Made by a program: the position numbers and the translations under genes | The notes under the pieces: generated by a model | The model's database searches: none | What the model was told of the DNA's origin: nothing | The model's input: the letters and a program-made list of their open reading frames with translations, nothing else | Part shown: piece by piece, positions 43,483 through 46,637 of the stretch | How the letters are laid out: each line of letters starts with the position of its first letter | How positions within the stretch are numbered: position 1 is the first letter of the stretch | Virus record (IMG/VR): IMGVR_UViG_3300045970_000794 | Location: 1 to 64,000 of that record | Source of the DNA: a virus | Reading direction: 5' to 3' (one strand) | Length of the DNA stretch: 64,000 nucleotides

Positions 43483-44268
43483 ATGAAAATTTTTAATTTA
43501 TACGAACATATTGTTGAAGAAGAGGTAGTTACACAAAAAGCTGAATCATGTATTTCTAACTTCGGTCATGAATTATTTGGTGATGAGCTAGGTGGTAAGG
43601 AAAAAAATACCCGTATTGAAAACAATATGGTTGATTTACTTAAAGATTTCACCGATAATCAATATGGTGAAGAAACTAACTCAAAATTAAAGTCTGGGTT
43701 AAAAGTACTTAAAAGTTGTATGTCTACATACCCAGAAGTGTTGATGCCAGATAATAGTGTTGCTTATCGTGGTGAATCAATACCGTTTAAATATTTATTC
43801 CAGAATTATAAAGATATTAATGATAATGGTAGTTTTACATATCTTTATAAAGCTAAAAGTTTAGTACAAAGTTGGACTGAAAGCTATAAAGTTGGTAGTA
43901 ATTATGTGCTAAATCAAATAAATGCTAAATTAGAGAAAATATTAAATACTATTACTAATCCAGATTATGATACATTAAGTGATGTTGAAAAAATAAAATG
44001 GTTGTCTCGTGAAATTGACTATACTAATTTTTTAACATATAATATAGGTGTATTATTATCACATATGGCCGCACCAGATAGTTTTTTATTTAAAGGTAAG
44101 TATTTCAATAAATTATCAACATTTGATGATGAATTTGAAATATTAAGAGTAAGTAAAGAACCAATAAGATGTGTTGGGAGTATTAACCCAGCATTAGCTA
44201 AATTAACTAGCGAATTAAATAAGTTTAAAAAGCAATTAGACATCACTAGCGATGACTTTAACCAGTAA
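43483..44268 (+). CDS. paralog 1 of 4: putative R-S-E-type ADP-ribosyltransferase (Alt/Mod-like)
   Basis: Ordered motifs AYRG, QSWTES, FLFKGKYF and DEFEILRV. Confidence 0.45.
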   Translation: MKIFNLYEHIVEEEVVTQKAESCISNFGHELFGDELGGKEKNTRIENNMVDLLKDFTDNQYGEETNSKLKSGLKVLKSCMSTYPEVLMPDNSVAYRGESIPFKYLFQNYKDINDNGSFTYLYKAKSLVQSWTESYKVGSNYVLNQINAKLEKILNTITNPDYDTLSDVEKIKWLSREIDYTNFLTYNIGVLLSHMAAPDSFLFKGKYFNKLSTFDDEFEILRVSKEPIRCVGSINPALAKLTSELNKFKKQLDITSDDFNQ

Positions 44269-45063
44269 ATGATGAAGATATTCAATTTATATGAAAACGT
44301 CCTTAGAGAAGAGGAAATTAGCCAGAACGCTCAAAATTGTGTTAGATATTTTGGTAAAGAATTGTTTGGTGATGAAATTTTCATTAATCAAGATGAACCG
44401 AATACTCCAATTGAGAAAAAATTCTCTCATATGATATATCACTTCACTGATAAGGCTTATGGTGAACAAATGTCAAGTGATAATCCTAGTTTCATAACGG
44501 CAATTAATAAATTGAAGTCATGTATGTCAGTATATCCAGAGATATTACATCCAGAAGGTGATACCGCATTTCGTGGTATATCTCTATCATTAGATAAAGC
44601 AATTAATCTATTTCAAAGATTTAATGGTAAATATGAATTCAAATTAGCCTATACACCAAAAACATATATTGAAAGCTGGAGTGAAAATTTAGGTGTTGGA
44701 GCTCAATTTGCACATCAAAGTCAAACCCCATGGTTAGATGATTTAGTTAAAAATCTAAAAGCTTTAGGACCTAACCCAAGTGATGAACAAATTATAGAAA
44801 CAATAAATGATGAATTAACAACCAAAGATTATTATAGAGCATCTAAAGTTGGTTTTATCATTAAACATAAGGTTACACCAGACCAATTCTTATTTAAAGC
44901 AAAATATTTTAAAGATTTAAGCTCAGTTCCAGAAGAAATGGAAATTATTAAAATCGGTAATACACCAATAAATTGCTTATGGTCAACAATTACTCCAGAT
45001 ATATTTAGAGTATTAATACCTTATTTAATAAAATATAAAGATAAATTGATAATATTTAGTTAA
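44269..45063 (+). CDS. paralog 2 of 4: putative ADP-ribosyltransferase
   Basis: AFRG, ESWSEN, FLFKAKYF and EEMEIIKI. Confidence 0.45.
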   Translation: MMKIFNLYENVLREEEISQNAQNCVRYFGKELFGDEIFINQDEPNTPIEKKFSHMIYHFTDKAYGEQMSSDNPSFITAINKLKSCMSVYPEILHPEGDTAFRGISLSLDKAINLFQRFNGKYEFKLAYTPKTYIESWSENLGVGAQFAHQSQTPWLDDLVKNLKALGPNPSDEQIIETINDELTTKDYYRASKVGFIIKHKVTPDQFLFKAKYFKDLSSVPEEMEIIKIGNTPINCLWSTITPDIFRVLIPYLIKYKDKLIIFS

Positions 45064-45064
45064 T

Positions 45065-45877
45065 ATGGGATTATTTAATATATATGAATCATTAATGACC
45101 GAAGCTGAAACTTCTGGTAAAGCACAAGCTTGTATTAGGGCCTTTGGTGAAGAATTATTCGCACAACAATTAGGTGGTGAAGAACCAAATACTAATTATG
45201 AAGATAGTATCACTCGTGGTATTAAGAAATTCACCGATACATCTTTTGGTGCTAAAATGAAACACGAAAACCCAGATTTCATTGGTAAAATGAATACATT
45301 AAAATCATGCATATCAGTATATCCAGAGATATTACACCCAGAAGGAGCTGTTTATCGTGGAAAAACAACGACATTACGAGAAGCTATTGATTTATGGGTT
45401 AAAATACATGGTAAAACAGAATTTAAAATGCCATATAAAGCTAATACCTACATTCAAAGTTGGAGTGAAAATGAAGCTATAGCTAAACAGTTTGGTACAT
45501 CGTATTTACCTGATGATTTGATACATAGGGTTAAACTAATTTTAAGTGGTGCTAAATATGATGATGAAAATGGTCTTGAAGTAGATAAGGATTATTTTGA
45601 TGCAACTATAACTAATGTTGCTGGTAAATTAGTTAGTAATCATAATATTGTTGGGTTCATTATAAAACATGATGCAACGCCAGATAGTTTTCTATTTAAA
45701 GCAAAATATTTTAAAGTATTAAGCACCGTTAAACATGAAGATGAAATTTTAAGAATAGGTAATAATCCATTAATGTGTGGTTGGACGTTAACTAAACCAA
45801 GTATTTTTGAATTTATAATACCATTTGTGAAAAAATATAATGCTGAAATAACAAACTATTTAGATAGTCATAATTAA
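45065..45877 (+). CDS. paralog 3 of 4: putative ADP-ribosyltransferase
   Basis: VYRG, QSWSEN, FLFKAKYF and HEDEILRI. Confidence 0.45.
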   Translation: MGLFNIYESLMTEAETSGKAQACIRAFGEELFAQQLGGEEPNTNYEDSITRGIKKFTDTSFGAKMKHENPDFIGKMNTLKSCISVYPEILHPEGAVYRGKTTTLREAIDLWVKIHGKTEFKMPYKANTYIQSWSENEAIAKQFGTSYLPDDLIHRVKLILSGAKYDDENGLEVDKDYFDATITNVAGKLVSNHNIVGFIIKHDATPDSFLFKAKYFKVLSTVKHEDEILRIGNNPLMCGWTLTKPSIFEFIIPFVKKYNAEITNYLDSHN

Positions 45878-45878
45878 T

Positions 45879-46637
45879 ATGGAAATATACAAATTATACG
45901 AATCATTAATTCGTGAAGAAGTTACTGGTGGTGTTCAAGCATGCGTTGCTAAGTACGGTAAAGAACTATTTGGTCCGCAGTTAGGTGGTGACGAACCAAA
46001 CACTGATGTTGAGGATAATTCTGTTGATAGAATCTATAATTTCACAACACAGCATTATGGTGGTTCAATTTCATCTGAATTTGGTGGTAATGTTGATGAT
46101 TTAAAAAAATGTATGAGTGCATTTCCAGAAGTATTACACCCAGAAGGTGAAGTTTATCGTGGATTATCATTATCACTAGAACAAATTCTACCATATATAT
46201 CAAAAATAGATGCACATGGCCACTTCCAATTCGAATATAATGCTAGGACAAGAGTACAAAGTTGGACTGAATCATTTGAAGTTGCTGATGATTTTGCAGC
46301 TGCATCGGTTAATAAATTTACGATTAATTTTATTACTAATGTTATCGAACCAGGTTCATTGAATGAAAAGATTCAAGATTATATTAATAATGGGTTAATG
46401 GTACAATTTAAAATCCCAGTAGTTCTAAAACATAATGCAACACCAGACCAATTCTTATTTAAGGCAAAATATTTTAGTTTATTAAGTGCTAGTGAAGATG
46501 AGGATGAAATTTTAAGAATCGATAATAAACCAACAATGATGAGTGCCGAAATTAGACATGATTATGAGTTAGGTAGTACCGATAAAACAGTAATTGAATT
46601 TCTACATTTAATTGTAAATGCATTAAATAAAAATTGA
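45879..46637 (+). CDS. paralog 4 of 4: putative ADP-ribosyltransferase
   Basis: VYRG, QSWTES, FLFKAKYF and DEDEILRI. Confidence 0.45.
   Translation: MEIYKLYESLIREEVTGGVQACVAKYGKELFGPQLGGDEPNTDVEDNSVDRIYNFTTQHYGGSISSEFGGNVDDLKKCMSAFPEVLHPEGEVYRGLSLSLEQILPYISKIDAHGHFQFEYNARTRVQSWTESFEVADDFAAASVNKFTINFITNVIEPGSLNEKIQDYINNGLMVQFKIPVVLKHNATPDQFLFKAKYFSLLSASEDEDEILRIDNKPTMMSAEIRHDYELGSTDKTVIEFLHLIVNALNKN

Follow-up and report, generated by a model that had tools for sequence, protein, structure and literature searches.

A tandem array of four putative R-S-E ADP-ribosyltransferase genes, distantly related to T4 modA and modB, in a jumbo-phage-like genome

Four consecutive genes at positions 43,483 to 46,637 of the IMG/VR virus record IMGVR_UViG_3300045970_000794, whose first 64,000 nucleotides were analysed here as a single stretch (the window), very probably encode enzymes with the ADP-ribosyltransferase (ART) fold, of the R-S-E type and distantly related to the T4 proteins ModA and ModB. 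It also seems likely, as the fuller account that we favour, that the four genes code for R-S-E mono-ADP-ribosyltransferases which arose as old tandem duplicates, act on separate host targets and are expressed from one operon. Phage ADP-ribosyltransferases reprogram host transcription and translation, and to our knowledge only a handful of them (T4 Alt, ModA and ModB) have been studied. In R-S-E enzymes the arginine and the S-x-S/T motif hold NAD+, while the second glutamate of an E-x-E motif is catalytic. That the four genes belong to this type had been proposed from the letters of the window alone (the sequence-only reading), and the proposal is now supported by motif conservation, by profile homology to ModA/ModB and by matches of the predicted fold.

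The array forms a plus-strand island in a region where almost all long open reading frames (ORFs) lie on the minus strand. Paralog 1 (43483..44268, +, 261 aa) carries YRG at 43765-43773 (R96), SWTE at 43870-43881 (S130), FLFKGKYF at 44083-44106 and EFEILR at 44131-44148 (E217, E219). Paralog 2 (44269..45063, +, 264 aa) has FRG at 44569-44577 (R102), SWSE at 44674-44685 (S136), FLFKAKYF at 44887-44910 and EMEIIK at 44935-44952 (E223, E225), and paralog 3 (45065..45877, +, 270 aa) has YRG at 45353-45361 (R98), SWSE at 45458-45469 (S132), FLFKAKYF at 45689-45712 and EDEILR at 45737-45754 (E225, E227). In paralog 4 (45879..46637, +, 252 aa) the same elements are YRG at 46155-46163 (R94), SWTE at 46260-46271 (S128), FLFKAKYF at 46452-46475 and EDEILR at 46500-46517 (E208, E210). 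The genes are separated by 0, 1 and 1 nt and followed, after 30 nt, by a T5orf172 gene. Each of the motifs [YF]RG, SW[ST]E, FLFK[AG]KYF and ExEI[LI][RK] occurs once per copy in all four copies, with a constant spacing of 34 residues from R to S and of 16 from FLF to ExE, and a variable one (64 to 77 residues) from S to FLF. The order and presence of the motifs are thus as the sequence-only reading had them, but its R to S distance of about 33 residues is 34, and the FLFKAKYF that it assigned to all four proteins reads FLFKGKYF in copy 1. Pairwise protein identity among the copies is 30-43%, copy 1 and copy 4 align by BLASTP with 38% identity over 237 aa (E 1e-53), and the DNA of the array repeats with a period of about 800 nt (804/802/763) and 60-78% identity within conserved blocks. 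Coordinates and identities agree with the description of four paralogs of 252-270 aa on a plus-strand island amid minus-strand genes, and the similarity of the four sequences points to homology, not chance.

The sequence link to a known enzyme family was obtained with T4 ModA and ModB, taken from the annotated T4 record and deepened to nine sequences that carry PF26816 in precomputed annotation. When a merged 170-sequence profile of the window family (Neff 6.0) was aligned by hhalign to the nine ModA/ModB sequences, a probability of 88.9% and an E value of 2.4e-6 were obtained; shallower 76-sequence profiles gave E values of 1.8e-3 and then 6.9e-4 with the register unchanged. In this register L.P...YRG falls on ModA R72, the QSW serine on S96 and A..F on A104/F107, and at the permissive setting only, FLF falls on F127/N128 and ExE on E163/E165. 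Among the controls, a reversed Mod profile gave an E value of 0.4 and an unrelated T5orf172 profile 0.56, and 30 column-shuffled Mod profiles gave 0.0045 at best with a median of 0.36. HMMER searches started from either the window family or ModA/ModB did not reach the other. By these comparisons the family is a distant homolog of ModA/ModB and not a member of it; we filed it outside that family because HMMER fails to connect the two, because the architecture differs, and because the curated threshold is not applicable, PF26816 being absent from the local Pfam copy (in which ModA itself has no match).

Predicted structures place the motif residues where an R-S-E enzyme has them. An AlphaFold2 model of full-length copy 4, built on a 76-sequence alignment (model 1; predicted local distance difference test, pLDDT, 85.9; predicted template-modelling score, pTM, 0.82), shows N-terminal helices followed by six core strands, with R94 in strand 91-99, S128 in strand 126-130 followed by helix 133-142, and E208/E210 immediately before strand 211-214. 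The catalytic domain of copy 1 modelled by itself (model 2; pLDDT 91.1, pTM 0.85) has the same six-strand topology, with the [YF]RG arginine in strand 21-29 and the strand-then-helix arrangement of S-W-[ST] as in model 1. The aromatic-preceded arginine that marks the first core strand of R-S-E ARTs is thus found as [YF]RG in 4/4 copies, the S-x-S/T as S-W-[ST] at a strand followed by a helix, and the E-x-E at a strand start. When model 1 was compared with BFVD, 10 matches were found at E<1e-3 (1.6e-5 to 1e-3, probability ~1), and these include Alt-type RNA polymerase ADP-ribosylases, an S-PM2 arginine ART, Gordonia phage ARTs and head-morphogenesis fusion proteins. Against the PDB (Foldseek), the best six matches of model 1 are all R-S-E ARTs (Vis three times, HopU1 and Certhrax twice) and lie among the seven most significant (E below 0.26), of which the seventh has a probability of 0.03; pertussis S1 and C3bot stand further down the list.

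The four proteins belong to a large family of uncharacterised metagenomic sequences. A profile of the four, searched against 5.8 billion proteins, found 75 matches, all metagenomic, all annotated as 'hypothetical' and none with a Pfam domain, and when 1.84 billion cluster representatives were searched exhaustively with HMMER, 607 matched at E≤1e-3, 56 of them at E≤1e-30. No member of the family was found in 50,697 GenBank phage records when the array was searched by blastn and copy 3, the consensus and 24 diverse members (concatenated) by tblastn, and a wide protein search with an alignment of distant members gave 4 unannotated matches and no transitive link. R94, S128, E208 and E210 (copy 4 numbering) are invariant in the 76-sequence alignment of close homologs, as are E13, C22, G27, L30, F31, E39, N41, E45, G61, L75, C78 and L86 in the N-terminal region, and R-G, S-W and E-x-E retain a conservation of 90% or more even among 108 distant members that share ~25% identity. 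All 32 intact copies from 18 loci retain R, S and ExE. Exceptions to ExE are the single copy of L016 (6001-6741(+) of a 362.5-kb contig), which has N-x-E, and copy 2 of L021/L022 (6758-7414(+)), in which the catalytic residues are lost (YRPH, QGW, HND); judged from its sequence, the L021 copy may be a pseudo-enzyme.

A comparison with 21 related loci (22 with the window included) shows that the array is old. The family gene forms a plus-strand island in a minus-strand region at every locus, with one copy in most loci, two in L009 and L021/22, four in the window, L006 and L007, and five in L008. In a distance tree and identity matrix, copy 1 of the window groups with copy 1 of L006/L007/L008 (55-62% identity), copy 2 with copy 2 of L006/L008 (57-61%), copy 3 with copy 3 of L006/L008 (42-45%) and copy 4 with the last copies of L006/L007/L008 (48-50%). 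Since the copies are positional orthologs and share 30-43% identity within the array, the array is ancient, its paralogs having been kept separately. Identity to the window is 27-50% for the ART copies, 40-70% for the T5orf172 protein and 46-73% for the product of the downstream flank gene, so that the ART copies have diverged most. Along the four window proteins, identity reaches 0.5-0.8 around the motifs (0.8 at FLFKAKYF) and is also high in the N-terminal region, and it falls to 0.05-0.13 in residues 101-110, 141-180 and 221-230 and to 0.17 over 231-250; residues 141-180 correspond to a helical insert that separates the S helix from the core strand after it. As a separate observation, the 228-kb contig L004 encodes at 8920-10227(-) a 435-aa protein whose PARP catalytic domain (PF00644) represents a second, unrelated type of ART in the same lineage; the one ART-like gene of this contig lies about 4 kb away. 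Some related contigs (L002 13587-14153, L004 7835-8392, L003 7296-7862) also encode, within a few kb of the cassette, small proteins that match the T4 Gp23 domain (PF07068); their length of 163-188 aa is odd for a major-capsid domain.

The last gene of the cassette is the T5orf172/MUG113 gene (46668..46976, +, 102 aa), whose product is nuclease-like, of the GIY-YIG superfamily, and matches PF13455 (4.5e-17) and PF10544 (1.2e-13) over residues 2-80; a Pfam scan found no second domain in it, and hence no attached DNA-binding domain. The gene stands 3' of the ART gene or genes, on the same strand, in 19/22 loci, with a gap of 26-39 nt in 15. L006 ends at the contig edge before the gene, which is present in the 64-kb version of L006; L018 keeps a remnant (6770-6898(+)) in which an internal deletion has left residues 1-19 and 79-104, and L019 has no T5orf172 gene, the ART gene being intact in both. 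Because its divergence tracks that of the flanking gene, T5orf172 appears to be a resident, vertically co-inherited gene and not a recent invader. The idea of a recently mobile homing endonuclease gene (HEG) that carries the ARTs as cargo is unlikely for the same reason and for the missing DNA-binding domain; the plus-strand island may have had a mobile origin long ago, and the gene may be a partner of the ARTs or a domesticated or decaying relic of the mobile element that first brought the island.

Upstream of the cassette, the element ATATTTAT (43454..43461, +) lies 21 nt before the first start codon, as a candidate cassette promoter. ATATTTAT[AT] is found 8-35 nt 5' of the first ART-like gene in 18/18 loci inspected, within flanking sequence that cannot be aligned. 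In the window 10/32 copies of ATATTTAT lie 13-40 nt 5' of a same-strand gene start, where random placement would give about 1; AT-rich control 8-mers reach 19-26% at gene starts, so that the enrichment over controls is modest. About nine other genes are also preceded by ATATTTAT[AT], among them those starting at 41054(+), 60013(+), 56669(-), 24254(-), 18869(-), 31323(-), 39673(-) and 51940(-), and the element, which corresponds to neither the sigma-70 nor the Bacteroidota consensus, is a candidate phage-specific promoter, proposed from sequence. A scan for sigma-70 promoters showed no enrichment (27 against 29.5 expected), the Bacteroidota TTTG/TAnnTTTG consensus was not found upstream of the cassette, and in the cassette region Rfam matched nothing but tRNA-Glu. 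The tight gaps and the conserved upstream ATATTTAT element suggest a single operon.

In the mechanism that we propose, each protein would have an ART core of six strands, preceded by a conserved helical region of ~85 aa at the N-terminus and accompanied by a hypervariable part that comprises a helical insert and the C-terminal tail. E-x-E, rather than Q-x-E, goes with arginine acceptors in R-S-E ARTs, and we infer that each paralog would bind and use NAD+ and ADP-ribosylate arginine side chains of host proteins, that the hypervariable insert and tail would select a separate target for each paralog, and that the cassette would be co-transcribed, probably as a plus-strand operon that includes the T5orf172 gene, from the ATATTTAT element. 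The tandem duplications would be older than the split of several related jumbo phages, with each copy then kept as an ortholog. As the core is kept while the surface insert and tail differ almost completely, each paralog most likely has a different host target, and the four enzymes may together form a host-takeover set analogous to T4 Alt/ModA/ModB. The diversified host-target modification suggested by the sequence-only reading is plausible on these grounds, fitting both the positional orthology and the hypervariable surface segments.

Two NAD+ salvage genes were found in the window, a NAMPT (NadV-type) gene (5850..7424, -; PF04095 1.5e-42, PF18127 1.8e-31; 36 kb from the array) and an NMNAT-Nudix (NadM-type) gene (7975..8961, -; PF00293 7.1e-13, PF01467 4.7e-4). 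The array had been described as standing next to NAD+ salvage genes; the genes are present but not adjacent, the nearer lying 34.5 kb upstream, and about 40 genes together with 26 tRNA genes separate the pair from the array. A pairing of NadV and NadM has been described in jumbo phages (PMC9503650), and the window, part of a 362-kb genome, looks like a jumbo phage. Its host probably belongs to the Flavobacteriia, as judged from a DNA ligase (57983-59380(-)) closest to those of the Cellulophaga baltica phages phi17:2/phi4:1 (52.6% identity), a type IX secretion C-terminal sorting domain (Por_Secre_tail) encoded at 31615-33204(-), and a G+C content of ~30%.

Around the cassette, 27 tRNA genes are spread over 24310-47065, nearly all on the minus strand and with duplicates (Gln x3, Phe x3, Leu x3, Pro x2, Val x2, Asp x2), the tRNA-Glu gene (46994-47065(-)) coming directly after the cassette. 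Three RNA-ligase-like genes (two PF09414, one T4 Rnl1-like), an HD + AAA_33 kinase-like gene and a metallophosphoesterase gene (21319-22071(-), 56714-57538(-), 61511-62641(-), 18922-20046(-) and 10504-11067(-)) look like an RNA or tRNA repair set beside the tRNA island. The window also has four GIY-YIG/NUMOD (Seg-like) homing-endonuclease genes at 1978-2883(-), 17608-18255(+), 55890-56669(-) and 60013-60645(+), and two DUF4379/DUF723 treble-clef Zn-finger protein genes at 3574-4302(+) and 8971-10503(-). Because several of its few plus-strand genes are of the HEG or Zn-finger kind, plus-strand islands in the window tend to be linked with mobile elements. Just upstream of the cassette, 41054-41728(+) encodes a Cys-rich 224-aa ORF product with several CxxC pairs and no Pfam match, and has a ATATTTATA element 19 nt 5' of its start; it could be another Zn-finger nuclease-like gene. 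On the other side, 47460-48446(-) encodes a flank protein of ~330-335 aa with no Pfam or NCBIfam match, detected in 15/22 loci and lying directly downstream of the cassette in annotated contexts, and is followed by the gene for an HD-domain protein (48462-49013(-)), recorded only in the window, L007 and the 64-kb version of L006.

Several observations weigh against the assignment of the four proteins to the ARTs, and would suit an unrelated alpha/beta family in which R, S and ExE serve other chemistry or structure and the likeness to ARTs is convergent. No curated library recognises the proteins: in Pfam no ART family was matched by the four paralogs (at E≤1), by 108 distant members or by the family consensus, PHROGs gave just two non-significant matches for the paralogs and, for a few of the distant members, four PHROGs of unknown function, and NCBIfam had no match for the family. 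A search of the PDB by sequence (profiles A1, A2 and A6) returned a spurious RecQ HRDC match alone (E 0.012-0.085), and the confident hhalign core with ModA/ModB comprises only 64 columns, in the R-S half, with ExE aligned just at the permissive setting. Several of the top BFVD matches are named only as head-morphogenesis or portal proteins, or not named, and the aligned part of these may or may not be their ART domain. The PDB fold matches of model 1 are marginal (best E 1.7e-3, template-modelling (TM) scores 0.32-0.36, none at E<1e-3), and for model 2 the top PDB matches are noise at E≥0.2, with KptA alone standing for the ART superfamily at a probability ≤0.16. In addition, no macro, NADAR or ARH (ADP-ribose-removing) gene was found among the window ORFs scanned. 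The fold evidence is supportive and not decisive, since the PDB scores are marginal and the trimmed model 2 did not reproduce them, and the split ART sheet that the sequence-only reading had wanted sought in a predicted structure is borne out as far as both models show six core strands and carry R, S and ExE on or beside the strands where they should lie, but with that marginal PDB support. The library negatives, on the other hand, were calibrated with the genuine enzymes: T4 ModA/ModB are likewise without a match in the same Pfam copy, and a ModA/B profile finds nothing significant in the PDB by sequence, so that the negatives from curated libraries and PDB sequence searches say little. As the hhalign controls are clean, six of the seven most significant PDB matches are R-S-E ARTs, and three independent weak-to-moderate signals point to one superfamily with the residues in register, we regard an unrelated, convergent family as very improbable.

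If the proteins are ARTs, their substrate may still be something other than protein arginine, such as nucleic acid (pierisin/Scabin-like), NAD-capped RNA transferred to proteins (RNAylation) or a small molecule, or they may hydrolyse NAD+. Of the relatives that could be detected, ModA/ModB are the nearest, and a further activity of ModB is to attach NAD-capped RNA to proteins (10.1101/2021.06.04.446905; PMC9503650); Vis, which heads the PDB matches, was crystallised together with the small acceptor agmatine, which resembles arginine; the cassette lies in a region rich in tRNA and RNA-repair genes (27 tRNAs, three RNA ligase-like genes and one PNK-like gene) and its ART genes are paired with a nuclease-like gene in 19/22 loci; and it has been suggested that some phage ARTs act as NADases (PMC9503650). 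These arguments from gene neighbourhood are circumstantial and nothing in the sequences is specific to nucleic-acid binding. Moreover, ExE together with an R-S-E core is, by established knowledge, typical of arginine-specific protein ARTs, and we consider such other substrates unlikely. A narrower form of the idea, in which the [ART]n-T5orf172 cassette would be a two-part module acting on tRNA, RNA or DNA-associated targets and not on protein, with the ARTs ADP-ribosylating or RNAylating in concert with the nuclease-like protein and the insert serving as a swappable recognition module, is highly doubtful; if true, the cassettes, with their 1 to 5 enzymes, would form a natural series in which the substrate specificity of ARTs could be decoded, and might reveal a new class of substrate. 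It may also be that each paralog inactivates a different host immune protein, with copy number tracking the defence repertoire of the host. Such a counter-defence role would agree with the fast evolution of the family relative to its neighbours, with copy numbers of 1, 2, 4 or 5 among related phages, with the hypervariable surface segments, and with the view that most viral ARTs are fast-evolving conflict genes (PMC9503650); the genome also carries NAMPT and NMNAT-Nudix, a pair read as a possible counter to NAD+-depleting immunity (PMC9503650). Yet positional orthologs kept over a long divergence are a better fit to stable targets than to an arms race, and counter-defence, which we hold to be quite improbable, shares its mechanism with the arginine-directed host takeover favoured here and differs from it in the targets only.

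Multiple ARTs in jumbo phages are already known, as ARTs have been reported in over 40% of jumbo phages, often in multiple copies, with some phages encoding ten or more (PMC9503650); the kind of system described here is therefore known, and knowledge of the kind is unchanged. What is new, as far as the database searches go, is an unannotated, metagenome-only family of at least 607 clusters, together with its conserved N-terminal region, its hypervariable insert, the ancient arrays of 1-5 copies and the linkage to T5orf172. Through the ModA/ModB link, hundreds of hypothetical proteins from uncultured jumbo phages, probably of Flavobacteriia, could be named and assigned an activity that is open to test, and the ancient arrays of 1, 2, 4 or 5 copies, with one core and differing surface inserts, would be a natural experiment on the evolution of ART target specificity.

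The cassette can be compared with several known systems. With T5orf172 HEGs of the ICP1 type, the last gene shares the T5orf172/MUG113 domain, in which the residues typical of GIY-YIG proteins look intact, and like them it is dispensable and decaying in some genomes and is found in a genome rich in other HEGs. It was reported that 87% of T5orf172 homing endonucleases carry a DNA-binding domain, either a Zn finger of the CapR/DUF723/DUF4379 type or another (PMC10448857), whereas the cassette protein, at just 102 aa, consists of the domain alone, with no Zn-finger. The bacterial R-S-E toxins Vis (4Y1W/4XZJ/4XZK), HopU1 (3U0J), Certhrax (4GF1), C3bot (2C8C) and pertussis S1 (7SKY) resemble the window proteins in the order of R (strand), S-x-S/T (strand and helix) and [QE]xE (strand start) and in having N-terminal helices before the core, with Foldseek E values of 1.7e-3 to 1 and TM scores of 0.23-0.39; unlike the toxins, the window proteins are without a secretion or translocation domain, and there is no sequence similarity between the two. 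The best BFVD fold matches are T4 Alt-type and virion-associated ART domains (head-morphogenesis or polyvalent fusions), which are thought to target host macromolecules (PMC9503650). Those are domains of virion proteins of 360-1390 aa, while the window proteins are free-standing and of 252-270 aa. The N-terminal MKIFxLYE was considered as a T4-like capsid-targeting or protease signal common to packaged proteins but found no support, as the motif was confined to the family (24/24 matches among 723 ORFs, in a scan that covered 64 kb of the 362-kb genome).

T4 ModA/ModB are the sole known family linked to the window proteins by sequence: the R, S, A..F and ExE positions correspond, although the aligned core has a very low identity of ~16-20%. 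ModA/ModB and the window proteins alike are small, single-enzyme products of tandem paralogous genes carried by a large phage of the myovirus type; the tandem arrangement of modA and modB, to which the sequence-only reading had pointed, is as given in the annotated T4 record, where the two genes are adjacent with a 4-nt overlap. ModA/ModB are single domains of ~200 aa, and the window proteins are 50-70 aa longer, with an N-terminal stretch of strong conservation (C..FG.ELFG...E.NT..E) and, separating the S motif from the FLF strand, a helical insert of 35-50 aa that is hypervariable. T4 infects Enterobacteria, whereas the host of the window phage is probably one of the Flavobacteriia, and the arrays of the window family reach five copies instead of two and are coupled to a T5orf172 gene, the ExE catalytic motif being common to both.

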